Under the pieces are notes generated by a model that was given only the letters and a program-made list of their open reading frames with translations, was not told the DNA's origin and ran no database searches. DNA of 64,000 bases from Candidatus Bathyarchaeota archaeon (GTDB lineage: Archaea > Thermoproteota > Bathyarchaeia > Bathyarchaeales > Bathycorpusculaceae): assembly GCA_963717465.1 (NCBI GenBank), contig OY970340.1, positions 1,216,001 through 1,280,000 of the forward strand, read 5' to 3'. The first letter of the stretch is position 1, and every line of letters starts with the position of its first letter. Positions 6,194 to 20,008 of this stretch are shown piece by piece. Made by a program: the position numbers and the translations under genes.

Positions 6194-7559
6194 ATGGGAT
6201 ATCTATTGTGGGAAGTCTTGGAAAGAACTAGAACTGGTCCAATCATGAAAGAAGACGAATTTGAGGTCACATATTTTCCGACGATACTAAAGAAGGTCAT
6301 CCAAGATTACAAGATCAAATGGGATGGCGAGCCAGTAATGGCAGATGCACAGATGGCTGATGCTATTTTTGAAGCTGGTATACAAGTGCTAGTTCAGTGC
6401 GGATTATACTGCAAAGATACTAAACACATAGTTAAATTCAATGAAAATGAACTGAGAGAAGTTGTCAAAACACGAAAGCATGAGGTTGAGTGGGGAACCG
6501 GCAGAGACGTGCTAAAGATGGGTATTAGAGGTCCTGAGGATAAGCAGCATCCATACTGCCTAAATGCGGGCGGAACAATGGGAAGCAACATACAAGAGTG
6601 GAGGGACGCTGTTTATCTCGCTGCTCGTGAACCGACGACAGATGGAATGATGACGGGAATACTTGAGGCGTCTTTTGGTCAGAAGTCAACGTATGCTACG
6701 CCTACTGAGTCGCTTGCTGTTCATGCTGAATGTGAGTTGATGACTGCTGGGGCGCGCGCTGCGGGAAGGCCTGGTATGTTGCTTGGTTTTCCTGAGACTG
6801 GTACGAGTATGGTTGCGTTGATGCAGGCTTTTGATCCTGGTTACTATACGCCTAAGGAACTGTATGATGCCAGTGCATATACTGCAGGACATGAGGGTAG
6901 TCGTTGATAGGCTTAATCTTGCTTACTTTGCTATGCAGCATGGGATTGTTCCGTGGCAGAGTTGTAGTCCTACGCTGTACGCTTATATCAGTAGTCCTGA
7001 GGAAGCGGCTGTTGAGGGAATGGCTCATTCGCTGGGTCAGATGGCTTATGCAGACGGGTCATTCACCCAGGCAATGAACAACACAATTGATAACCTATAT
7101 GTAGGTACAGATTGTTTTTGGACTAATTCAGCGATGGCTTTGGCTGCAGAAAGAAACATAAAGGTTCCTTGGATTTCCACCGGATTAGGATTAATGCAAC
7201 CTATGACTGACGCTGATTGGTATGCAACAGCATGTAGCTGCATTAATGCTTGTATATCTGGCATGGAAGGAATGTGGATGGTCGATGGTGGTTGCCCCGT
7301 TATCGGTGTAAGATTTGGAAGTGAATTCACACGAGCAGCTGCTGGAATAAAAGTAAGCGAAGGGACCAAGATAATAAAAGAGCTCACCAAGAAATTTGCA
7401 CCGGCTATAAAGGTATTTGACATTAGTCAAATAATGCGCAGTCTTTACTTGGACTATGACCCGGAAACTTTGAAACCTAGAAAGGAAACTGTGGATATGT
7501 ACAATAGGATGACGAAAGAGTTTAAAGACATGGGTTTTGACTACCCAACATGGGGTTAA
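6194..7559 (+). CDS. Monomethylamine methyltransferase MtmB-family protein, pyrrolysine-free; 1-nt frameshift at ~6855
   Basis: RTRTGPIMKEDEF, ADAIFEAG, AAGRPGMLLGFPET; two ORFs join at CCTAAGGAAC. Confidence 0.8.
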
Positions 7560-8750: not shown

Positions 8751-8878
8751 CTAGATTTGCCGTGTCTTAATTAGCAAAAAGAGCTTAAAGGGTGACTATT
8801 CTGCGAAAGTTGGTGCTTCGGCCTAGTTCTATACTCGGGTTCTGACTCGGAAAACACGCTTGATAGATTTTTGTTAAT
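8751..8878 (-). repeat. att-like repeat containing a degenerate tRNA-Glu 3' half, copy A
   Basis: Aligns with 12066-12197 (GGCCTAG.TCTATACTCGGGTT.T.ACTCGGAAAACACG) and with 19891-19943. Confidence 0.75.
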
Positions 8879-8900
8879 ATCAATGAAATCGAATTCTGAT

Positions 8901-8968
8901 AGTGCGGAGGGTAAGGCTTTGAACCCTCATCACGGTGGGGATGTCACTCGCCCTTCACCATCTTTTTT
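8901..8968. repeat. ~60-bp dispersed repeat (tRNA T-arm-like + GGAGATRTCACCCGCA box + T tract), copy 1
   Basis: TTTGAACCC..GGGGATGTCACTCGC..TCTTTTTT. Confidence 0.55.
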
Positions 8969-9117
8969 GCAGTACTTTTAGTTTGTTTTCTACGCGTTAA
9001 AGTTGCTTGCTTTTGTGTTGCTCCATAGTTATAATCTTTAGAGTCTAACCTTTTTATTTGCAATGTGTAAAAAATTAGGGATTTATATTTTAAGAACTTT
9101 GTATCATTGGGTTAAAA

Positions 9118-9327
9118 GTGGTTGATATGTCTGCCAATCCATTAGCTTCTGACGAAGTACGAAGAAAAAAGAGAGTAGTTGGTGTAATTGCAATAGTTCT
9201 TTTGCTGTTTTTCACCGTTTTGGATATATTACGATTCATTTCGGTAATAGTGTGGATTATAGCAGATTTGGCTGTGGCGTTAATAGCGAATTTTCTGATT
9301 AGAAGAATTGGAAGAGTAAGCCTCTAA
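9118..9327 (+). CDS. Small two-TM membrane protein
   Basis: Basic stretch followed by two hydrophobic segments. Confidence 0.65.
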   Translation: MVDMSANPLASDEVRRKKRVVGVIAIVLLLFFTVLDILRFISVIVWIIADLAVALIANFLIRRIGRVSL

Positions 9328-9544
9328 ATACTAATGTTTTGTCTGATGCCTTAAACGCTTGTTACCGCTGGCTAGACTTCATCTGGCTGTTGACGTTAGA
9401 AGTGATTTTGATAGCTGTTGAGGACGGTTTTGATCACGTCTGCGACTTCCAAGATGGTAACCTATTCAGAAAAAGAAAGTAACATGCTGGCGTATGGCAA
9501 CTGCGGGAAACAAGTTTTGCCACCCCTCGGCAATTTACTTATAA

Positions 9545-9609
9545 TGGTGCGCGGGGTGGGACTTGAACCCATGTCAGGGAGATGTCGCCCGCATCGTCTT
9601 CCCTTTTTT
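9545..9609. repeat. ~60-bp dispersed repeat, copy 2; includes an intact tRNA 3' fragment on the minus strand
   Basis: Minus strand reads TGGGTTCAAGTCCCACCCCGCGCACCA; plus strand continues GGGAGATGTCGCCCGCA..CCCTTTTTT. Confidence 0.65.
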
Positions 9610-9678
9610 ATAGCGCATTTAAGGTGTCGGGCGATAAGAAATGATATTGGGCAGGGGGCGCATCTATACCTTTCGGCG

Positions 9679-11073
9679 TCAGGGATTGCCTATGTCTGAT
9701 GCTGTCGCGGCCGCCTTGATCAGCTCGCCGTCCTCGGCCAGCAAAAAGCCTGATTGTACAGCTGCATCAGTAGCCTTTCCTACAGCCTTTACATAAGTAT
9801 GGTGGTCGGGGTACAATTTTGAGAGTGTTACTTTATCAAACAGCTTAGTAGTTCCGTAAAGACCCAGGCCGGAAAGCCTGGCGACAGGTACATCGACAAA
9901 GGGGGTGCGGATGCCACCTTTCACATTGCCAAGCTCATCGAGCACAAGTTCTGGGGGATTACCAGCGATCTCGAGTCGGGCAGCGGCAGTCGGGGCAACA
10001 CCGGTGCACACCCATTTGTCGAGTTGGTGAATCGCCGCTCTTGTAATGAAATGCTGTGGTCCCGCATTTATCGGCAGATCGCAATCCGCAAAACCAGAAT
10101 TAGGTCTTGCTACCTCAACTACATTGGCAAACGATGGATCATTACCGGTGTCATCTTTACCTGTGAGCAGATAGAGATCAGCGTGTGCGGTACCCGCCAT
10201 TTCCCACAGCCGGATTTTATCCGTATCGTCCTGCCTTGCCTTATAATAACCAAGCAACATGAGATCCGTTTCCGACTCTAATATCAGAACGGGAACATTG
10301 ATGTCAGTGCGGATGAAAACCTGATCCATATCTGAAAAATCAATATTCTCTTTAGAATTGACCTCAGTTGAATTGTTTTCGAATAATGCGAAACCCGATC
10401 GGCCGTGTAAAAGAAATCCATCAAAGACTTGATCACGGAGCTGGATAGCATTGACATAGGAAGTGAGATGCATAGCGGATTGTGATTCGCCTACCGCCAA
10501 TATACGATCGGCATGGCATCCAGCGAGTAGATTGACGCTGCCCGGGCTACGAATGGCTCTGGCAGCTTGTGAATAAATATCATAGCAATATTCATCCCCG
10601 GGATGGGTTAGTGACCCATAACGTTGCGGATCAGCGGTTTTCAGATCCAATTTGACATTGCCTAATGAAATGGATGAGTGGCCTTCAACTCCTCCACATT
10701 GTGCCGACACGCCAATCCAGATATAACCCCGGCGGAGTAATTCGTTGTGCATAAATATCCAATCGGGTGCGTAATCGAGTCCGCCTGAAACGTTGAGCCA
10801 CTCCATTACAACGGTGCCGTTGAATTTGGCAACATCCAAGGGCTGGCAGACTATAATCCTGGTCTTATAGGCAGCAGATCCCATCGGTTCTACTTCCCAG
10901 ATGCCGTTCGCTGGTAATTCATTGACATTACGATATGATATAGCAGTTCCAGAGATGAAATATTCTTTTGTTTCGTATCCAGCGGCTGTTAGGACTTGAT
11001 TCGATGGTGTGCTCATCAAAAAAGGTACGCTGGGACCGGCGATGGGTCCCTCGATAATGGGAATACTGATCAC
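9679..11073 (-). CDS. Alpha/beta hydrolase domain protein
   Basis: FNGTVVMEWLNVSGG, GESQSA nucleophile elbow, WEMAGTAHAD, GGIRTP; more GC-rich than its flanks. Confidence 0.8.
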   Translation of the reverse strand: MISIPIIEGPIAGPSVPFLMSTPSNQVLTAAGYETKEYFISGTAISYRNVNELPANGIWEVEPMGSAAYKTRIIVCQPLDVAKFNGTVVMEWLNVSGGLDYAPDWIFMHNELLRRGYIWIGVSAQCGGVEGHSSISLGNVKLDLKTADPQRYGSLTHPGDEYCYDIYSQAARAIRSPGSVNLLAGCHADRILAVGESQSAMHLTSYVNAIQLRDQVFDGFLLHGRSGFALFENNSTEVNSKENIDFSDMDQVFIRTDINVPVLILESETDLMLLGYYKARQDDTDKIRLWEMAGTAHADLYLLTGKDDTGNDPSFANVVEVARPNSGFADCDLPINAGPQHFITRAAIHQLDKWVCTGVAPTAAARLEIAGNPPELVLDELGNVKGGIRTPFVDVPVARLSGLGLYGTTKLFDKVTLSKLYPDHHTYVKAVGKATDAAVQSGFLLAEDGELIKAAATASDIGNP

Positions 11074-11337
11074 GATGACACCCTCGCTCGTGCGGTTAAC
11101 TGCGGAATAATCTTGCTACCAATCAAATACAAACCCTCTTCAATTGGCATATTCATTTCTCCCCTTTCCTTCAAATTTGATAATAAAAGGTAAGCTCTAA
11201 GCGTATATTAGGTTAACTTTGGACGTAGTTCTTAACTTCAACTCAGTACTTTTGTGGCTAGTTGACTTTTGTTATTTAACAAGCAAATATACCTGCAGGT
11301 GCGTTGGATTCCACGCAACAGTAAATTGAACAGACAT

Positions 11338-11388
11338 GACTTAAACCCCCAGTTAAGTGGAGATTTCACCTGCAAAGCCCCCTTTTTT
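11338..11388. repeat. ~60-bp dispersed repeat, copy 3
   Basis: GACTTAAACCC..GTGGAGATTTCACCTGCA..CCCCCTTTTTT. Confidence 0.55.
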
Positions 11389-11837
11389 CTTAAAAGCAAC
11401 CATTCTGACAGCTAGGACGAGCCCTTCGATACCAATTACTTCTACTTCTTTATCTTTTTCTATCCAGCTCTCCTTTGCCACGGCTTGCCAGAATTCACTC
11501 TTGACACGAATTTCCCCCTTCTGTTTTAAATCAGTAATAGCAATTCCTATTGCGCCAACTAGTATTCTGGACCTGCCTTGACATTGGCAAGCATATCCAT
11601 CCTAACTCCTCTGTAAAGACGAAACGCTCGGAAAGTTAATATCACAATACCGAATATGACAACCAAAACCTGAATTAGTAAACTAACCCTGAAAAAACTA
11701 AGACCTAAAACAATGAAAAACAAAATTAAACCCGGAATCAACGTCCAAAGAATAATCAGAAAAACCCACTCCAAAGGCTTGCTTAGATTCCTCCTTTCTT
11801 CGCATGCTAAAACAAAACCGCCATTCTTAAACCTCAT
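11353..11837 (-). CDS. NfeD-like membrane protein; 1-nt frameshift at ~11562
   Basis: Hydrophobic ORF 11559-11837 continues in another frame as LVGAIGIAITDLKQKGEIRVKSEFWQAVA, homologous to 62016-62414. Confidence 0.7.
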
Positions 11838-12065
11838 TTTTCACGCTACCCGTGTAAACTTGATTTTGATCCACATTGTCCAAAAGATAATCTAGATGAA
11901 GAGTTACTTAAATAGAAAGAAGGTGTAGTTGGAATCAAGTATTACGTGCGCTTTTAATCCCAAACATATAAACCGTCTTTTGCTTATTTTTTGGGGGAGT
12001 TTTATGCTTGCGAAGTAATAAACGAATTTTCAGGGAAAACAAGCGGCAAATACGCTTAAACTAAG

Positions 12066-12197
12066 CTCGATTTGCAACGCCTTAATTACCAAAAAAAGCC
12101 TAAAAACTGACTATTTCGGGAAAGTTAATTAGTGCTCCGGCCTAGGTCTATACTCGGGTTTTAACTCGGAAAACACGATTTACATCTTTTTGTTAAT
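12066..12197 (-). repeat. att-like repeat containing a degenerate tRNA-Glu 3' half, copy B
   Basis: 12111-12142 CTATTTCGGGAAAGTTAATTAGTGCTCCGGCC is identical (32/32) to 19912-19943 at the tRNA-Glu 3' end. Confidence 0.85.
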
Positions 12198-12337
12198 TTG
12201 AATACTTTAAAGAAGAGGTTATCTCAAAAGAAGTGTTTAACATAATTTTACGTTTCATAAATCCAGTTTGATTAATTATCGCAACTTAAGCGGTTCCAAT
12301 CCCTAAAATATTTAAATCCAAGAGAATAATTGTATTC

Positions 12338-12799
12338 ATGGCTCAAGGCAGGAAAGAAGAACTAAAAAGCGCCGTTTTAGGAAAGAACGTCACAAAATTT
12401 GTTTTTAATCGTCCCAGCGCCAAAATTCTTGAGATATTTCAAAACAGGTACTCAAAACGTGATTATTTCATTAATATTGATATACCCGAGTTTACCAACA
12501 TTTGTCCGTTAACTGGACAACCAGACTTTGCGGTAATTCGCATACGCTACGTTCCCGACGAAAAATGCTTAGAGTCAAAATCGCTGAAAATCTACATTTT
12601 CTCTTATCGCAATTTTCCTGAATTTCATGAAGATTGCATTAACAGAATTTTAGATGATTGTGTAAAGGTATGTGCGCCTAGATGGATGCAAGTATCGGGC
12701 AAGTTTAATGCCAGAGGAGGCATTTCATTCACGCCTGTGGCTGAGTTCACTAAAAAGGGTTTCAAATTGGCTCAGCAGAGCGCAAAATTAGATTTATGA
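12338..12799 (+). CDS. queF: NADPH-dependent preQ0 reductase QueF (type I)
   Basis: PEFTNICPLTGQPDFA, ESKSLKIY QueF motif, FHEDC, FNARGGI. Confidence 0.9.
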   Translation: MAQGRKEELKSAVLGKNVTKFVFNRPSAKILEIFQNRYSKRDYFINIDIPEFTNICPLTGQPDFAVIRIRYVPDEKCLESKSLKIYIFSYRNFPEFHEDCINRILDDCVKVCAPRWMQVSGKFNARGGISFTPVAEFTKKGFKLAQQSAKLDL

Positions 12800-12825
12800 T
12801 GCTCGCAAGAGTTGAGGATGCAAAG

Positions 12826-13254
12826 ATGAAAAAATCTGAATTCGACAAATATCTCCAAGAAAGGTACAATGACCAAGTAAAATGGTATGACACCAAAGCA
12901 ATCCTTTACAAAAGATTGAATTACATATTCCAAATCCCAACAATCTTTGTTGCAGCAATTATTCCAATATTCGCTTTGCTTGAACAAAAATGGGTAACAG
13001 TAATCCTTTCAGCTACAATGGCTATATTTATCGGAATCCTGAACTATTCCAAATTCGAGGAAAAATGGCATAATTATAGGTTTACATGTGAAAGACTAAA
13101 GAAAGAACTCTTCTTTTACACAGGTAAAATTGACGACTATAAAAATGCAGAAGAACCAGAGAGCTTGTTTGTTCAGCGAGTTGAATCAATTACTTCCGAC
13201 GAACATTCACAGTGGGTCACAATTGAAAAAACCAAGAAGAAACAAAATCAATAA
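12826..13254 (+). CDS. SLATT/DUF4231 two-TM protein, putative effector
   Basis: YLQERYNDQVKWYDTKA, two TM helices, WHNYRFTCERLKKE. Confidence 0.8.
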   Translation: MKKSEFDKYLQERYNDQVKWYDTKAILYKRLNYIFQIPTIFVAAIIPIFALLEQKWVTVILSATMAIFIGILNYSKFEEKWHNYRFTCERLKKELFFYTGKIDDYKNAEEPESLFVQRVESITSDEHSQWVTIEKTKKKQNQ

Positions 13255-13264
13255 GGCGATTTAA

Positions 13265-14254
13265 TTGCTTGTTGAAAAAAAATCACTTAGATCTTTTAAA
13301 ATTGAAGATTCTGGAAAATCATTTGAAACCCCTTTGTTTGTCCCTGCGACATCTAGTACAAAAGCAAATTGGACAGTTTTGCAATATATTGACTTAATAG
13401 AAAACGTCGGGTATCCGTCGTTTCTTGTCTCAGCTTATGATTATTGCAAGCTTGAAAAAAAGCAAAAAGAGGATTTTGAGAAGCTTTTGGGAAAATACAG
13501 AAAGAAAGGCACTTTTTTCTTTTTAGATAATGGTAACTATGAAGCTTATTGGTACAAAGACAAAAAATGGAATCTGGACGGATTAAGAGATGCTTTGGAG
13601 ACTGTTTGCCCAGACTTTTGCTTTTCCTTTGATGTTTTCTGGGAAAAAGACACAAAAACAGAATCATACATCAAAGATACTGTATCGGCTATTGCAAAAA
13701 CAGCAGGTTCGCAAAAAACAGGGTCAACTATTGCATTGTTTCATTCCAGGCCTGATTTATTTCCGAAAGTAGTTAGAAAAGTCGTTGATAGCATTAATCC
13801 CGAAATAATTGCTGTCCCTGAAAGGGAATTAGGATGTAGCGTTTTTGAACGTGCCCTATCAATTAAAAACATTCGAAGTGAACTTGATAAAGACGGAAAG
13901 TTGATACCAATGCATATTCTCGGCACAGGTAACCCACTTTCAATTCTTATTTACACATTGTGTGGAGCTGATACCTTCGATGCCCTTGATTGGTCAAGTG
14001 TATTTATGGACCCAAAAACTTGTCAGCAGGGTCATTTTTCACAGAAGGATTTGTCAACCTGTAGTTGCGAGGCATGTCAATTGAAACAGGTTCCATACGA
14101 TTACCAGGTCATGGCCCACAATCTAATCTTCTATCAAAGATTCTTGGAAAAAATCAAAAAATCTCTTGAATCATGTAAAGTTGATACGCTGCTCAAAGAG
14201 TATCTATCTGACAAAAACGTATTGGAAGTAAAGAAAATAGCGGTATTGAAATGA
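13265..14254 (+). CDS. Divergent tRNA-guanine transglycosylase (TGT)-family protein, Cap10-like
   Basis: ETPLFVP, FLDNGNYE, HILGTG, GADTFD, Zn site CSCEAC..HN. Confidence 0.8.
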   Translation: MLVEKKSLRSFKIEDSGKSFETPLFVPATSSTKANWTVLQYIDLIENVGYPSFLVSAYDYCKLEKKQKEDFEKLLGKYRKKGTFFFLDNGNYEAYWYKDKKWNLDGLRDALETVCPDFCFSFDVFWEKDTKTESYIKDTVSAIAKTAGSQKTGSTIALFHSRPDLFPKVVRKVVDSINPEIIAVPERELGCSVFERALSIKNIRSELDKDGKLIPMHILGTGNPLSILIYTLCGADTFDALDWSSVFMDPKTCQQGHFSQKDLSTCSCEACQLKQVPYDYQVMAHNLIFYQRFLEKIKKSLESCKVDTLLKEYLSDKNVLEVKKIAVLK

Positions 14255-14991
14255 CTGAACTTTGCTTGATTACTGAAAGAATTGAGAATACTATTATGAA
14301 GGTGTGCGACTTCGTCGATTCACAACAAACAACTGGCTCTTGTTGGAAAAACCTCTGCGAGGAAGAGCTTTGGCCAGAATTGGTGTCCTGTATATTGGGC
14401 AGTAGAGTTAGATATGAGACTGCGAAAGCATGTTCTATCCAGTTATTAAAAACTGGTTTGCTTGATATTTCTACTATTTTGAAAAATCCTAAGCGTGTTG
14501 AAAAAGCAATAACCAAGGAATTAGGCAGACCCATGTATCCGCCAATGAAAGGCCGCCTAGGTTCAAGATAGCGTTACCCGAAATCCAAGTCTAAATTTAT
14601 CGTAGACACCGCGGTTAAAATATACTATGAAGACAAAACTACGATAAAGGATATTCTAAATAGCTCTCATGATGGGATTGAAGCAAGAGCGACGCTGATT
14701 GAAAAATGCAAAGGTATAGGACCAAAACAAGCAAGTCTTTTTCTTAGAAACATAAGTTTTAGCAATGATTTGGCTATTCTTGATTGTCATGTTGACCGAT
14801 ACATGAGATTGCTTCGATTGAGCGATAGTTTGGACTTGATAGACAAGCAGAAAATGCATCCCTATTTTAAGATGGAAAATAAGTTGAGAATATACGCGAT
14901 ATCTAAAAAGAGATCGCTTGCAACTTTGGATATAGGCATTTGGACTGTTATGCGCCTAGTAAAAAAGGAGGATATAGTATGGCAGTTGTAA
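14251..14991 (+). CDS. HhH N-glycosylase/DNA lyase (Ogg-like, Cap11-like) with an in-frame TAG at 14569-14571
   Basis: Frame stays open after the TAG: RYPKSK...KGIGPKQASLFLRN...LAILDCHV (helix-hairpin-helix with catalytic Lys and Asp). Confidence 0.8.
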
Positions 14992-15608
14992 GTTTAGTTT
15001 CTGGTGGAATTGATTCTCTAACTATGTCAAAAATTATTGTTGAACAAGGAGAAGAAATATTACCGATTTTTATTGACTATGGTCAATTAGCTAAAGACAA
15101 GGAATGGGCTGCCTGTCAACTGGTTTTCAAGGAATCTGGCTTGTCTGCCCCAATCAGAATCGACTTAAGCGGTTATGGCAAATTAATGCCGACAGGAATT
15201 ACTGACCCAAAAAAGGAAATACGTGATCAAGCTTTTCTTCCCGGAAGAAATCTCTTATTTCTTGTTGTCGGAAGTTCTTATGCTCATTTCAAAGGAGCTA
15301 GGGGAGTAGCAATCGGTTTGCTTACAGAAAAGTCACATATATTTCCTGATCAGACTGGCAGATTTGTTGTCAATACAAATATAGCTGTAAACGAAGCTCT
15401 GGACGATGATATTACTATATTGACGCCGCTGATTAATTTCTCCAAAAGCCAAGTAATCGAACTTGCTAAACACTACAAACTTCCAATAGAAAAAACATAT
15501 TCTTGTCACTCGGGTAACGACACTTATTGTGGGAAGTGTATTTCTTGCCTGGAGCTTCTCGGTTCAATTGGAAAAGACTTGCCACAATTTAAAGCTAAAG
15601 GTGTTTAA
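14979..15608 (+). CDS. queC: QueC-family protein (7-cyano-7-deazaguanine synthase-like, Cap9-like)
   Basis: GGAGGA SD; SGGIDS PP-loop, IDYGQ, PGRNLLFL, FPD, TYSC..CGKCISC. Confidence 0.9.
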   Translation: MAVVSLVSGGIDSLTMSKIIVEQGEEILPIFIDYGQLAKDKEWAACQLVFKESGLSAPIRIDLSGYGKLMPTGITDPKKEIRDQAFLPGRNLLFLVVGSSYAHFKGARGVAIGLLTEKSHIFPDQTGRFVVNTNIAVNEALDDDITILTPLINFSKSQVIELAKHYKLPIEKTYSCHSGNDTYCGKCISCLELLGSIGKDLPQFKAKGV

Positions 15609-15609
15609 T

Positions 15610-16131
15610 GTGGGTGGTTCACCGGTATACAGCGATACGGGTCATGGTGGAGCAACTGATACTGACAAGTTGCAGGATATCGCTCGAAAAGAGCTTGAAA
15701 AACCAGCTCCAGAATCTAGAAAGAAAGTTTTCCTCAGCTTCAAAGGAGAAGATAAGACCTATGTTGACTTATTCCGTGGTCAGGCAAAAAATGAAAATTC
15801 AGACCTTGATTTCATTGACTTTTCGCTCAGAGCACCTTTTAACAGCGAAAACGCCGAGTATATCAAAAGTGGGATCAGACAAAGAATTGAGCAATCTTCT
15901 GTTACAATTGTGTGCTTAACTGAAGACACTCACAAGAGCGAATGGGTGGATTGGGAAATCAAAGAAAGCATAAGGCTTGGTAATGGTGTAATAGGTGTAA
16001 AAATGAAAGATGATTCCTCAATAAAGACACCAAAAGCAATGGAAGAAAATGGTTGCAAGGTGGTCAACTGGAATCACGAAGAGATTAATCAAGCGATGAG
16101 TGAGGCGGATAAAAAGCGCAAAGAACAATAA
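15610..16131 (+). CDS. TIR-domain protein (ThsB/MTH538 DUF1863-like) with an N-terminal MGGS extension
   Basis: GTG at 15610, 1 nt after the queC stop, with AGGTG SD; KVFLSF, YIKSGIRQRIEQSSVTIV, SEWVDWEI (catalytic Glu). Confidence 0.85.
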   Translation: MGGSPVYSDTGHGGATDTDKLQDIARKELEKPAPESRKKVFLSFKGEDKTYVDLFRGQAKNENSDLDFIDFSLRAPFNSENAEYIKSGIRQRIEQSSVTIVCLTEDTHKSEWVDWEIKESIRLGNGVIGVKMKDDSSIKTPKAMEENGCKVVNWNHEEINQAMSEADKKRKEQ

Positions 16132-16272: not shown

Positions 16273-16326
16273 TGGGAATTACACCCCAAGCAAATGGAGA
16301 CGTCTCCCGCAAAACTCCCTTTTTTT
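16273..16326. repeat. ~60-bp dispersed repeat, copy 4
   Basis: GGGAATTACACCCC..TGGAGACGTCTCCCGCA..CTCCCTTTTTTT. Confidence 0.55.
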
Positions 16327-16331
16327 GGATC

Positions 16332-16491: not shown

Positions 16492-17622
16492 TCATAAAGT
16501 CCTTTTTTTGATTTCAAGCCAGACGAGTGGAATTCCTGATAAAAATGAGCCAACAATAAGAAAAACAAAAGTCAAAATAGTGACGTAGTTATTGCTGAGT
16601 TTGAAATATGTCACAATGTCATTGGGGAAGGTGGCTGCTATTCCTATGAGAAGGATTCCAGCGATCATAGATACTATAAGGGAGTAAACTTCAAGTCTCT
16701 TTGACATTAATTTATATGGAAGCTTGATCGAAGGCGTCTCAAAATTCTCATCGGATTCTGTAACAACTATTTCTGAGCTTTCGCTTGTAAGAGTTTCTTT
16801 GGTTTGAAAATCAAAATACTTGGTATATTTGTCCTGAGCCATTGGCAAATCAATCTCTGATGAGCCTACATGGGATATTAATTTATCATCAACGCTAATG
16901 GTAATTTTTTTGTTTGGCTTGTTGTTATGCTTCTGATGATCTGGATTAAAAGCACTCAAAGATACAGCATACGGTCTTCCTTGACTGATTTTAAAAGAAT
17001 GTTCTTCAATGGATAATTGGGACTTGAGCTCCGTTCTGAGAAGAATGTTGGTTCTGAAAAATATCGAATTACTAAATTGTTCTTGCCCTTTCAATCGGGC
17101 AATAGGGTCAGCTCTTGCCAACATTTTGGCTGTCTCTTCCCAAATCTCTTGTTGAGAGTTTGTGCTGTTTTGATTTCCAACTAAAGGGTCGGCGCCTTTT
17201 AACACAAGTTTTTGAAGATATTCATCACTATTTGGAGTGGCTTTTGATAACATTTTTTTTTGACTCAAAATAGTTCGGATATCATCGTTGAATTTCTTAG
17301 TGTCAACCGGATTTACGAAATCTTCCATGCTTAGAATAATCTGATAAGTTACCCCTATCGTAGGTGGTATGATTTCTGAAACTTTGCAACGTCTGATTGG
17401 ATAAAATTCTGCGTTCTGTTTTGAATAATCAAGGAAGATTACGAGACCAGATATATTTTTAGCTTTGTTCAAATTCAATTTAATGTCATCGGATAGCCAT
17501 TTTTCGTCATACTCGACAAATTGAATCAGGCCGTTTGGTAAACTGAGAATCGAAAGAATCTTCTGCCTGAAGTCGGGATAATAGGTTGATTTAAAGAAGA
17601 AAATGATTTCAGGTGTGCTCAT
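16492..17622 (-). CDS. Hypothetical protein with two C-terminal TM helices
   Basis: 376-aa ORF with two hydrophobic segments at the C-terminus; 19 nt downstream of the radical SAM gene. Confidence 0.75.
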   Translation of the reverse strand: MSTPEIIFFFKSTYYPDFRQKILSILSLPNGLIQFVEYDEKWLSDDIKLNLNKAKNISGLVIFLDYSKQNAEFYPIRRCKVSEIIPPTIGVTYQIILSMEDFVNPVDTKKFNDDIRTILSQKKMLSKATPNSDEYLQKLVLKGADPLVGNQNSTNSQQEIWEETAKMLARADPIARLKGQEQFSNSIFFRTNILLRTELKSQLSIEEHSFKISQGRPYAVSLSAFNPDHQKHNNKPNKKITISVDDKLISHVGSSEIDLPMAQDKYTKYFDFQTKETLTSESSEIVVTESDENFETPSIKLPYKLMSKRLEVYSLIVSMIAGILLIGIAATFPNDIVTYFKLSNNYVTILTFVFLIVGSFLSGIPLVWLEIKKRTL

Positions 17623-17641
17623 TTATCCATTCATCTCTCTT

Positions 17642-18793
17642 TCAGAGCGGAACCTCACATCTGTATCTTCTTATCTCTGGCTCGCTATAAAAGCTTGGAA
17701 GAACACTTTCATACCACAATTGCGTAACAGTTTTCTGAAATCGCACAAATTTCGGAAACCACTCATCTGGACTTTCGTTATCGTGCCAAGGCAGTTTTCT
17801 TCCTTCTTTAAGGGCAGCGACCATATTTGGCTTCACAGCGGAATACGATTTAATTTGCAGCATGTTTGCCCTCAACGGAAGATTTGTATGAATTTGTTTG
17901 AGCCTACAACAACAAATATTCAATCTTCTTTTTAACTCGTCATTTTCAGCAAAAACCATCGGTATTAAATAGACATATGTGTCTGCCTTAAGTTCATTGA
18001 CCAAGAAATTCAAAACCTCAAATTGTTTTGCGAAGAATTCAGGCTGTGAATTAGTAATCTGAGAAAAATCTTCCGATCCTACTTGTCCGTCTCCAATGCC
18101 TTTCAAGCACCCGACTATCCCAAAATTGTGGTTGCCTATAGTTTCCTTTAGTTCATCCAACACTCTTTCCAAGTAATTGGTTGTTGACAAATTACAATCT
18201 GCCCAAACGTAGACACTGTTTGAAATGTTTCGTTTGTCAAGTTCCCTGTAAACGTCGATTATTAGTTCGGGAACTATAGTTGTTGCTTCTCCCCCACTAA
18301 TCCTAATAACATTCAGTTCCTCAGTGGTTGCCCTAAGTTTTTCGTACTCATCAATAATATCGCTTACTTTGAAGTATCGTCCTCTGCCAGCTTCAGGATT
18401 ATTCAAATCCCTGTCCACATAGCAATAGCTGCAATCATAATCGCAACCGTTGAGTTGGATCGTAAACGTATTGTTGTATTTTCGAGGATCACCACCCATT
18501 TTCTTCGCTGCGCTGTAAGGTGGATTCTGAAACTCTAGTTTTTGAAAACCGCCTTCAAGTCCTAGAAATTTCGGTGACCAGATTTCTGAGGTTGGAACAC
18601 TTGTCCACCATTGTGCATATAAATCTGACGGATCTCTGGGATCTATGTACGTTCTAGTCCGAAAATTTTTTTTAATGTCTTTACTATCCTTTATCTGGAC
18701 TCCTTGAGTAAAATCCGGAACAAAATAGCTGTTCGTAGCTGGGTCTCTCATTTGTTTTCTGCGTTTTGCTGCTATTTCTTCTGGATTTAGCAT
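17642..18793 (-). CDS. Radical SAM protein
   Basis: GCDYDCSYCY (CxxxCxxC), IRISGGE. Confidence 0.85.
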   Translation of the reverse strand: MLNPEEIAAKRRKQMRDPATNSYFVPDFTQGVQIKDSKDIKKNFRTRTYIDPRDPSDLYAQWWTSVPTSEIWSPKFLGLEGGFQKLEFQNPPYSAAKKMGGDPRKYNNTFTIQLNGCDYDCSYCYVDRDLNNPEAGRGRYFKVSDIIDEYEKLRATTEELNVIRISGGEATTIVPELIIDVYRELDKRNISNSVYVWADCNLSTTNYLERVLDELKETIGNHNFGIVGCLKGIGDGQVGSEDFSQITNSQPEFFAKQFEVLNFLVNELKADTYVYLIPMVFAENDELKRRLNICCCRLKQIHTNLPLRANMLQIKSYSAVKPNMVAALKEGRKLPWHDNESPDEWFPKFVRFQKTVTQLWYESVLPSFYSEPEIRRYRCEVPL

Positions 18794-19753: not shown

Positions 19754-19911
19754 TCAGACTGCATTTAAAGCCATCCTTTCTTTATAATATAAAACGCTTT
19801 TTCAGCGAATAATGGAGTAAGTAACTAACTACAAAATTGAAATGTCCACAGTGAATCAATTATTAGAATTGACCAAGTGATAATGCATACCAAAAAGAGC
19901 TTAAAAAATGG

Positions 19912-19943
19912 CTATTTCGGGAAAGTTAATTAGTGCTCCGGCC
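19912..19943 (-). repeat. att-like 32-bp direct repeat, copy C (tRNA-Glu 3' end plus downstream 22 bp)
   Basis: Identical to 12111-12142. Confidence 0.85.
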
Positions 19944-20008
19944 GGGATTTGGACCCGGGTCCGCGACTCGAGAGGCCGCTATACTTGACCGGACTATACT
20001 ACCGGAGC
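19934..20008 (-). tRNA. tRNA-Glu(CTC)
   Basis: Acceptor GCTCCGG/CCGGAGC, anticodon arm GCGGC-CTCTCGA-GTCGC, T arm CCGGG-TCCAAAT-CCCGG. Confidence 0.93.

Follow-up and report, generated by a model that had tools for sequence, protein, structure and literature searches.

A probable Thoeris-type TIR and SLATT operon with type IV CBASS helper genes and an in-operon QueF in a Bathyarchaeota genome

In a stretch of 64,000 nucleotides from Candidatus Bathyarchaeota archaeon (GenBank assembly GCA_963717465.1, contig OY970340.1, positions 1,216,001 to 1,280,000; hereafter the window, whose own numbering is used throughout), six co-oriented genes (12338-16131) code for QueF, a small membrane protein of the SLATT family, a protein of the tRNA-guanine transglycosylase (TGT) family, an Ogg-type glycosylase, QueC and a TIR protein. 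This operon is probably a horizontally acquired abortive-infection system of the Thoeris type, formed by the TIR and SLATT proteins, in which the TIR would be controlled by the helper module of type IV cyclic-oligonucleotide-based antiphage signalling systems (CBASS). The evidence seen directly consists of the gene content and order, the Gly-Gly start of the TIR, the conserved catalytic residues and the predicted complex between the TGT-like protein and the TIR. The hybrid nature of the operon had been recognised in an earlier reading made from the sequence alone (the sequence-only reading) and is right, but a system of this kind has already been described in outline. What is new here is the presence of QueF in the operons of one clade, the zinc cysteines of the TGT-like protein of that clade, and a host without canonical QueC.

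The operon, its products and its relatives

The six genes, already described as tightly packed in the sequence-only reading, overlap or nearly abut one another, and the profile scans of the island proteins with Pfam, PADLOC and NCBIfam jointly support all six families. The QueF and SLATT genes overlap by 4 bases, as do the TGT and Ogg genes; 10 bases separate SLATT from TGT, the Ogg and QueC genes overlap, and a single base lies between the QueC stop and the GTG at 15610, the likely start of the TIR. The proximity of a TATA-like box to the queF ATG suggests that the operon may be transcribed as a leaderless messenger. The features of the operon and of the island boundaries are the following.

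12305..12317, + strand: A/T-rich TATA-like box, about 27 nt 5' of the queF ATG, read from sequence
12338..12799, + strand: QueF of the unimodular preQ1 synthase type (NADPH-dependent preQ0 reductase; Pfam QueF, TIGR03139)
12796..13254, + strand: SLATT_1/DUF4231 two-transmembrane protein, ThsH-like, putative effector (Pfam, NCBIfam)
13265..14254, + strand: Cap10-like TGT-family protein with a CxCxxC...H zinc motif (PADLOC TGT, Cap10 9ntn)
14251..14991, + strand: Cap11-like Ogg/HhH glycosylase, putative pseudogene (Ogg-HhH match; TAG at 14569-14571)
14940..15608, + strand: Cap9-like QueC, likely start ATG 14979 (Pfam, PADLOC QueC)
15610..16131 (open reading frame, ORF, 15529-16131), + strand: TIR of the ThsB type, whose N-terminal Gly tail (M-GGSPVY...) precedes a helix and the TIR domain (ThsB_TIR)
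12087..12203, no strand assigned: tRNA-Glu 3' part with downstream flank, decayed copy; left boundary of the island (direct repeats)
19888..20008, - strand: tRNA-Glu(CTC) with att-like repeat; right boundary of the island (direct repeats)

As noticed in the sequence-only reading, no cGAS/DncV-like nucleotidyltransferase (CD-NTase) accompanies these genes. In fact, none of the eight island proteins matches a cyclase model of PADLOC, the Pfam scan of the same proteins likewise gives no cyclase, and PF18144 (SMODS), the only cyclase model scanned genome-wide, has 0 matches in the host genome, a single contig of 3.05 Mb with a marker completeness of 88%. The signalling enzyme would instead be the TIR, whose ORF matches ThsB_TIR (1.1e-22, Pfam) and the ThsB model of PADLOC (6.2e-18), whose nearest solved chains are TIR/ThsB proteins, and in which the glutamate of the WVxWEI motif (E115) is at least 90% conserved across 56 relatives. 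The likely start GTG 15610 is preceded by GGTG 7-13 nt upstream, and the product begins with M-G-G-S-P-V, after which members of the family show a short linking stretch, then a conserved helix and finally the TIR domain. Among the 130 related loci having QueC and a following TIR, 123 have, no more than 60 nt from the QueC stop, a start codon that is followed by Gly-Gly; in the others the start is followed by Gly, Ser or Ala (6 loci), or no such start is present (1 locus). The cyclases of type IV CBASS begin with M(G/S)G(G/S)GG, and the residue that is modified is Gly2 (bioRxiv 10.1101/2025.04.06.647259). Judged by its sequence, the Met-Gly-Gly start of the TIR is the acceptor motif of type IV CBASS.

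The presumed partner of this acceptor is QueC, which scores 8e-38 with Pfam and 4.8e-31 with the PADLOC QueC model PDLC00911, and is the sole QueC-family gene of comparable score in the host genome. The motifs SGGxDS, YGQ..E, PGRN and FPDQ (a version of YPDC), together with a Cys cluster, are conserved family-wide (motif definitions from the available text of PMC13329287 and PMC13279940). A second QueC-like gene was observed in another genome of the host family (G419:C2:10014-10562); its 119 bits are near the score of the operon QueC, and it may be a further instance of such a system.

The TGT-like protein matches the CBASS TGT model of PADLOC (PDLC00913) at 3.9e-27, as against 1.1e-6 for Pfam TGT, and with the archaeosine equivalogs it reaches 21.1 bits (ArcS, cut-off 440) and 19.3 bits (tgtA, cut-off 350), while a separate ArcTGT of 542 aa is encoded elsewhere in the host genome. 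QueC, for its part, obtains 124.3 bits with TIGR00364, under the cut-off of 150.3. At the equivalog cut-offs, then, neither protein groups with the housekeeping enzymes; such a grouping was among the objections that the sequence-only reading had named to its own proposal. The closest solved relative of the TGT-like protein is Cap10 (9ntn), at 1.8e-8 with the single sequence and 1.4e-17 with the family profile, the same profile giving 2.5e-7 against the ArcTGT structure. Residues H217 and D239 of the window protein align with Cap10 H226 and D248, D88 aligns with Cap10 D73, and D88, H217 and D239 are invariant across the TGT-like family. In Cap10 the corresponding residues have a base-reading and catalytic role, demonstrated or proposed (Wassarman et al., bioRxiv 10.1101/2025.04.06.647259). 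In type IV CBASS, Cap9 links 7-carboxy-7-deazaguanine to Gly2, and the pocket of Cap10 holds the tagged tail beside the D248/H226 pair (bioRxiv 10.1101/2025.04.06.647259). The profile and residue evidence identifies the TGT-like protein as Cap10-like, and not as a housekeeping enzyme.

Modelling with alignments for both partners predicted a complex of the mature TIR with the TGT-like protein at a score of 0.68, the best control reaching 0.01; the mark applied to such scores is attained by 116 of 157 solved complexes and by 2 of 215 mismatched pairs. The runs have at least 45% of contacts in common, with a partner pLDDT (predicted local distance difference test) of at least 77, and the confident contacts join residues 140-152 of a TGT helix with residues 66-94 of the body of the TIR domain. 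The model supports binding of the TIR by the TGT-like protein, and part of the score may reflect likeness, because a complex of Cap10 with a different partner has already been solved.

The Ogg gene contains a single in-frame TAG at 14569-14571 (codon 107), and its C-terminal piece matches Ogg-HhH at 1.5e-19. The conserved Lys (GIGPKQAS) and Asp (LDCH), presumably the catalytic residues, are located after the TAG. Decoding of this codon as pyrrolysine was considered and ruled out, since its column is occupied by Tyr in 117 of 131 homologues and no PylS was found in the host genome, where the best match has 31 bits against a cut-off of 178. For the same two reasons the codon, which the sequence-only reading had proposed to repair before expressing the operon, is best regarded as a genuine one-base nonsense change, or possibly as a sequencing error, and Cap11 is taken to be a pseudogene in the host genome. 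No RNA sequencing run was listed as containing this sequence; one DNA run, holding 7% of its words, gives two 151-base contigs that lie over 13960-14270 only, with the TAG outside. In the type IV CBASS tested, Cap11 was dispensable for defence and its loss raised toxicity (bioRxiv 10.1101/2025.04.06.647259). In one relative (L126:4725-7923) an insertion of about 2.4 kb interrupts the Ogg-like gene, a second and independent route to the loss of Cap11.

The putative effector is recognised by DUF4231 (2.5e-18) and SLATT_1 (1.6e-12) in Pfam and by NF033634 (107 bits, cut-off 41), and its translation shows two hydrophobic helices. SLATT effectors, as well as TPR-bearing CMP-hydrolase effectors, have been tied to canonical cyclic ADP-ribose (cADPR) in the main text of a recent preprint (bioRxiv 10.64898/2025.12.03.692087).

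The arrangement of these genes was followed in relatives of the TGT-like protein. Homologues at E <= 0.001 numbered 299 out of 1243 candidates; a scan of 185,579 genomes, one per species, gave 196 relatives, and a scan of metagenomes seeded with the closest 43 proteins gave 313. The best 80 of each set, hence 160 loci, were searched with the window's own proteins. The order TGT-Ogg-QueC-TIR was found in 127 of the 160, distributed over many phyla, and the worry that it might recur nowhere else can be set aside; TGT-QueC with only Ogg missing was found in 5, and the remaining 28 are incomplete, many of them being short contigs. This conservation is far beyond chance, and the relatives collected in this way identify a system that is real and widespread. 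A SLATT gene is present in 112 of the 160 loci. The recurrent neighbours, defined as clusters in at least 3 loci, comprise additional SLATT and TIR genes, TPR-S proteins, a PfkB-like kinase and restriction-modification genes. No CD-NTase was found among them in a Pfam scan of 15 representatives; 339 smaller clusters lie outside that scan, so a rare cyclase may lie beside some relative.

Two variations of the operon were observed among the relatives. In 21 loci of a proteobacterial subclade (L040-L080, for example L044:5221-6420) a gene similar to PfkB-family kinases lies directly 5' of the TGT-like gene, as another clade-specific accessory gene. Many bacterial relatives (L004, L010, L020, L022, L024, L123-L131 and others) have a second short TIR beside SLATT, and therefore two TIRs per operon, in the order SLATT-TIR-TGT-Ogg-QueC-TIR, with the Gly-Gly tail on one TIR only.

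The grafting of a deazaguanine-handling module onto a TIR and SLATT pair, as the sequence-only reading had put it, is upheld by the conserved gene order, the frequency of the Met-Gly-Gly start, the His/Asp pair shared with Cap10 and the predicted complex. From these elements a mechanism can be proposed. The TIR would be made with the N-terminus Met-Gly-Gly-Ser, from which Met would then be removed, and the Cap9-like QueC, using ATP, would attach a 7-deazaguanine carboxylate to Gly2 through its free amine. The Cap10-like TGT would bind the tagged TIR and keep it poised and, upon infection, would transfer or release it. Once active, the TIR would convert NAD+ into a signal of the cyclic ADP-ribose type, probably the canonical cADPR known from type VII Thoeris, and the two-helix SLATT protein would sense this signal and breach the membrane. 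The usual role of the Ogg-like Cap11 would be that of a brake, disabled here by the nonsense codon, and QueF, kept in one clade only, would tie the system by some route to 7-cyano-7-deazaguanine (preQ0) and 7-aminomethyl-7-deazaguanine (preQ1).

A number of points weigh against this mechanism, at least for the host of the window. The chemical steps, the nature of the signal, the action of the effector and the antiviral role are carried over by homology, and the assignment of the signal as probably cADPR derives solely from the type of effector. The TIR versions that bear helper genes are themselves known from operons and AlphaFold 3 (AF3) models alone in the main text of the preprint (bioRxiv 10.64898/2025.12.03.692087). 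The confident part of the interface predicted here does not put the glycine tail into the TGT pocket, and in pairwise comparison QueC is no nearer to Cap9 (9nto, 1.5e-12) than to a housekeeping QueC (3bl5, 6.5e-15). Furthermore, searches of the host genome revealed no canonical QueC by profile, no PTPS/QueD match (PF01242), no YhhQ-type transporter and no QueE above the cut-off of the one model used (TIGR03365), where the generic radical-SAM matches obtained are not decisive; with no origin of the expected deazaguanine apparent in this host, the operon may be unprimed or may use another base. Finally, the published mechanism contains no step for QueF, and the operon may be decaying in this host, given that its Ogg gene is broken.

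QueF and the supply of deazaguanine

The QueF of the operon is recognised by Pfam (1.3e-32) and by the preQ1 synthase model TIGR03139, with 160 bits against a cut-off of 86.9, an equivalog cut-off that is exceeded by all six QueF proteins tested among the operons. The motifs CPLTGQPDF (with its Cys), ESKSLKIY and FHED, which we take to be the catalytic and NADPH motifs of QueF, are kept in the relatives. A QueF gene was found in the operon in 27 of the 160 loci; 20 of them have it upstream of SLATT, the position seen in the window, and the other 7 downstream of the TIR. The two positions are occupied by two QueF lineages that are 39% identical, both of which keep the Cys, E(S/L)KS.K.Y and (F/Y)HE(D/E).

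In a tree of the TGT-like proteins with 156 rows, built by a quick method and rooted at the midpoint, every QueF-bearing row falls within one clade of 43 rows with an SH-aLRT of 100 (one QueF-bearing protein, that of L120, was too short for inclusion), and no QueF was found in the tree loci outside it. Within the clade QueF is present in 26 of 42 loci; 13 others are cut too short, so that a judgement is possible for 29, and 3 of these lack it. The members with a taxonomic label, namely the window, a Sifarchaeota metagenome-assembled genome (MAG) and a Methanomassiliicoccales MAG, are all three archaeal, and the sister group of the clade includes a Methanoperedens MAG. The other proteins of the operon are also particular in this clade. 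The zinc-motif residues C266, C268 and C271 of the TGT-like protein are kept in 98% of its members and missing in the other relatives and in the solved Cap10, the TGT helix 140-152 of the predicted interface bears clade-specific residues, and QueC has substitutions of its own and a C-terminal extension. QueF was rightly listed in the operon by the sequence-only reading, where it had appeared as a mere addition to the helper genes; its distribution departs from this description, and QueF, which looks obligatory in its clade, is the distinctive part of the operon of the window.

The deazaguanine genes of the hosts offer a possible context. In the host of the window the operon QueF is the sole QueF of the genome, and five further hosts give the following picture.

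G001, Sifarchaeota MAG (locus L001): QueF in the operon; no canonical QueC; no QueD; the operon copy is the only QueF of the genome
G002, Methanomassiliicoccales MAG (locus L002): no QueF in the operon; canonical QueC; QueD; no QueF in the genome
G003, Methanoperedens MAG (locus L005): no QueF in the operon; no canonical QueC; QueD; no QueF in the genome
G004, Pseudomonadales SP163 (locus L060): no QueF in the operon; canonical QueC; weak QueD (33 bits); QueF in the genome
G005, Pseudohongiella (locus L022): no QueF in the operon; canonical QueC; QueD; QueF in the genome

This comparison, a tiny sample of six hosts, hints that QueF accompanies hosts unable to make the usual substrate. A more general rule, by which the operon would supply its own QueF to archaeal hosts that have none, was rejected, as two archaeal hosts without QueF in the operon have none anywhere in the genome. 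The use of missing PF01242 matches as proof that a de novo pathway is lacking is likewise weakened, because none of 41 genomes of the host family matches this model, yet canonical QueC is present in 9 of them. It was observed in this connection that the host family, which includes genomes with canonical QueC such as G082, G409 and G412, may use a QueD that is not recognised or a salvage route.

From this distribution a different chemistry could be derived for the QueF-bearing clade, in which the base would come from preQ0, salvaged or made by a virus, and not from 7-carboxy-7-deazaguanine of the host. QueF would then make preQ1, which might itself be the mark, might bind the zinc-retaining TGT as a ligand or might be the base by which the system is reset, and the priming or firing of the system would depend on the deazaguanine supply. 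The confinement of QueF to one strongly supported clade, the recurrence there of two QueF lineages at two operon positions, all above the equivalog cut-off where tested, and the clade-specific zinc cysteines and QueC substitutions speak for this proposal. Moreover, both QueF-bearing host genomes examined are without canonical QueC and a QueD match, and the four hosts with no QueF in the operon all have QueD, three of them with canonical QueC. Nevertheless, the published chemistry still fits the clade, because QueC retains the carboxylate-ligase motifs and the TIR its Gly-Gly acceptor. The QueF-bearing hosts compared number only two, one of them an incomplete MAG; the evidence from PF01242 is weak, as seen above; and no route is known from preQ1 to a protein N-terminus. 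On balance we consider a different chemistry of this kind unlikely.

The tRNA-Glu island and the alternative readings of the operon

The operon is located inside a segment of 7.7 kb between two copies of a repeat, in agreement with the tRNA-Glu island described in the sequence-only reading. The repeat measures 73 nt, with 85% identity between 12087-12159 and 19888-19960, and the second copy consists of the last 28 nt of tRNA-Glu(CTC) (19933-20008, minus strand) and of 45 nt beyond it. The rest of the window is archaeal in content, encoding a thermosome, FttA, a proteasome subunit and SepF. Of 401 sampled genomes of the host phylum, its own genome included, 2 contain a match to the TGT-like protein at E <= 1e-30, and none of 10 other genomes of the host genus does. 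Since tRNA-Glu-derived repeats flank the operon and the TGT-like gene is so rare in the phylum and in the genus, the operon appears to have been acquired horizontally at a tRNA hotspot.

Other elements of the region were observed beside the operon. A further, decayed copy of the repeat is present at 8772-8884, and the three copies of the tRNA-Glu 3' part (8772-8884, 12087-12203 and 19888-19960) suggest two successive insertions at the tRNA, the first inserted segment (8885-12086) holding an Abhydrolase_10 gene at 9679-11073. A motif of about 30 nt, formed by a short palindrome, GCAAA, a C-rich run and a T run, flanks the operon before (11355-11390) and after it (16296-16330) on the + strand and may be a terminator or a hairpin small RNA. 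In the same island, the minus strand of 16492-18793 carries a two-gene module that may be another defence pair. Its first gene (17642-18793) encodes a radical SAM protein of 383 aa with weak matches to NrdG, viperin and QueE-like proteins, and its second a protein of 376 aa without known family and with hydrophobic C-terminal helices. The identification of the radical SAM protein as QueE or viperin was rejected, as the matches are weak and the protein belongs to an uncharacterised family; the pair is absent among the recurrent neighbours of the operon relatives. Outside the island, an MtmB-like methyltransferase gene at 6194-7559 has its coding sequence divided between two ORFs that overlap (6194-6907 and 6831-7559), and the genome has no PylS.

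A transferred operon need not be functional in its new host, and the one of the window might be a dead or dying remnant, with Cap11 truncated and the deazaguanine substrate not made. The TAG in a Tyr column of a genome that has no PylS, the joint lack of canonical QueC, a QueD match and YhhQ, the broken MtmB-like gene nearby and an island in which a Pfam scan of the proteins shows no remaining integrase would all agree with decay. However, five of the six genes are of full length with their catalytic residues conserved, Cap11 is dispensable in the type IV CBASS tested and five relatives do without Ogg, and a single-base TAG could be a sequencing error. A remnant therefore seems to us a rather doubtful explanation.

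QueC, QueF and a TGT with a zinc motif also make up the parts list of preQ1 insertion into nucleic acids, and the only QueC and the only QueF of the genome are found here. The Dpd and phage 7-deazaguanine systems combine a DpdA TGT-like protein with genes for preQ0/preQ1 synthesis (QueC and, in some phages, QueF), and modify DNA; they carry FolE, QueD and QueE, and are not known to include TIR or SLATT. If the operon were a modification island of this type, preQ1 would be inserted into DNA or RNA by the TGT-like protein, and the TIR and SLATT genes would be unrelated neighbours. The TGT-like protein, however, finds its best matches in the CBASS Cap10 model and in the solved Cap10, and is predicted to bind the TIR; QueC adjoins a Gly-Gly TIR in 130 loci, with the TIR start after the QueC stop; and the block is without QueF outside one clade, with QueD and QueE not in the operon. 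A nucleic-acid modification island is accordingly very improbable. That QueC and TGT would serve tRNA modification as a housekeeping supply of archaeosine, as the lack in the host of another QueC-family gene of comparable score might suggest, is hardly credible in view of the separate full-length ArcTGT, the 19-21 bits of the TGT-like protein against cut-offs of 350-440, the QueC score under its equivalog cut-off, the search of 10 further genomes of the genus, which did not find the operon, and the att-like repeats around it.

Relation to known defence systems and meaning of the operon

The Thoeris-type operon with CBASS helpers, which remains our preferred reading, is close to systems already reported. 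As described in the main text and figure legends of a preprint, some Thoeris operons carry cap9, cap10 and cap11, AF3 predicts that their TIR binds Cap9 and Cap10, and the combination of TIR and SLATT has been named type VII Thoeris, with canonical cADPR as its signal (bioRxiv 10.64898/2025.12.03.692087, Fig. 6G, S10B). The example given there, Pseudomonadales bacterium SP163, is one of the relatives collected in the present work (L060), with the same TGT-Ogg-QueC-TIR order. The claim of the sequence-only reading that this was a new, unnamed system is therefore not borne out, and the operon largely corresponds to an already named one. The operon of the window and these helper-bearing Thoeris share a TIR, an effector and QueC-, TGT- and OGG-like genes, without a CD-NTase, and in both cases TIR-TGT binding is predicted. 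By contrast, the word QueF has 0 occurrences in the main text of the preprint, where a glycine motif at the TIR N-terminus is not mentioned either, and the window belongs to a separate clade with QueF and a zinc-site TGT, its Ogg being broken. In type VII Thoeris, in the form given in that text, one operon unites a TIR of the ThsB type with a small membrane protein of the SLATT family, as in the window; this is, however, a two-gene system without helpers, and the SLATT protein of the window is likened to ThsH by family. The window also differs from many of its relatives in having no second short TIR beside SLATT.

Type IV CBASS, made up of a CD-NTase, Cap9, Cap10 and an optional Cap11, possesses the same helper trio, and its partner protein begins with Met-Gly-Gly-(Gly/Ser) (bioRxiv 10.1101/2025.04.06.647259). 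The His/Asp pair and the base-reading Asp of Cap10, the ATP loop of QueC and the aromatic-x-Asp base-recognition motif are all present in the window, where on the other hand the signalling enzyme is a TIR and not a nucleotidyltransferase, the zinc site of the TGT is kept, QueF is present and the effector is a SLATT protein. A more distant likeness is that to QatABCD, an antiviral system in which the QueC-family protein QatC acts on the N-terminal glycine of QatB, according to the available text of PMC13279940 and PMC13329287. In that system the active site of QatC is remodelled and the partners are an ATPase and a TatD nuclease, whereas the QueC of the window keeps the canonical and the Cap9-type motifs. 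With respect to Dpd and phage systems, a further difference lies in the TGT, which in the window matches Cap10 models. In the literature searched, no paper was found that joins QueF with Cap9, or that treats QueC, TGT, TIR and SLATT together; the papers pairing QueF with CBASS or Thoeris, judged by title and opening of the abstract, concern phage or virome genomics.

What protein deazaguanylation acts on in type IV CBASS, and to what end, is still unknown according to Wassarman et al. (bioRxiv 10.1101/2025.04.06.647259). A distinct deazaguanylation of proteins fed by preQ0/preQ1 in the QueF-bearing clade, with preQ0 salvaged or made by a virus where the host cannot make 7-carboxy-7-deazaguanine, seems to us an improbable conclusion at this stage. 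If it were true, the priming or firing of the TIR would report on the deazaguanine supply, for example on infection by viruses that make preQ0 for the hypermodification of their DNA, and a mark or ligand derived from preQ1 would represent a second chemistry between nucleobases and proteins. Independently of this, the window host, the Sifarchaeota MAG and the Methanomassiliicoccales MAG extend into the archaea the association of the helper module with a Thoeris-type signalling enzyme, and the exchange of the cyclase for a TIR, the two preQ1 synthases and the zinc site kept in the TGT offer handles on the deazaguanine that is used, on base exchange by the TGT and on the dependence of the system on host pathways.

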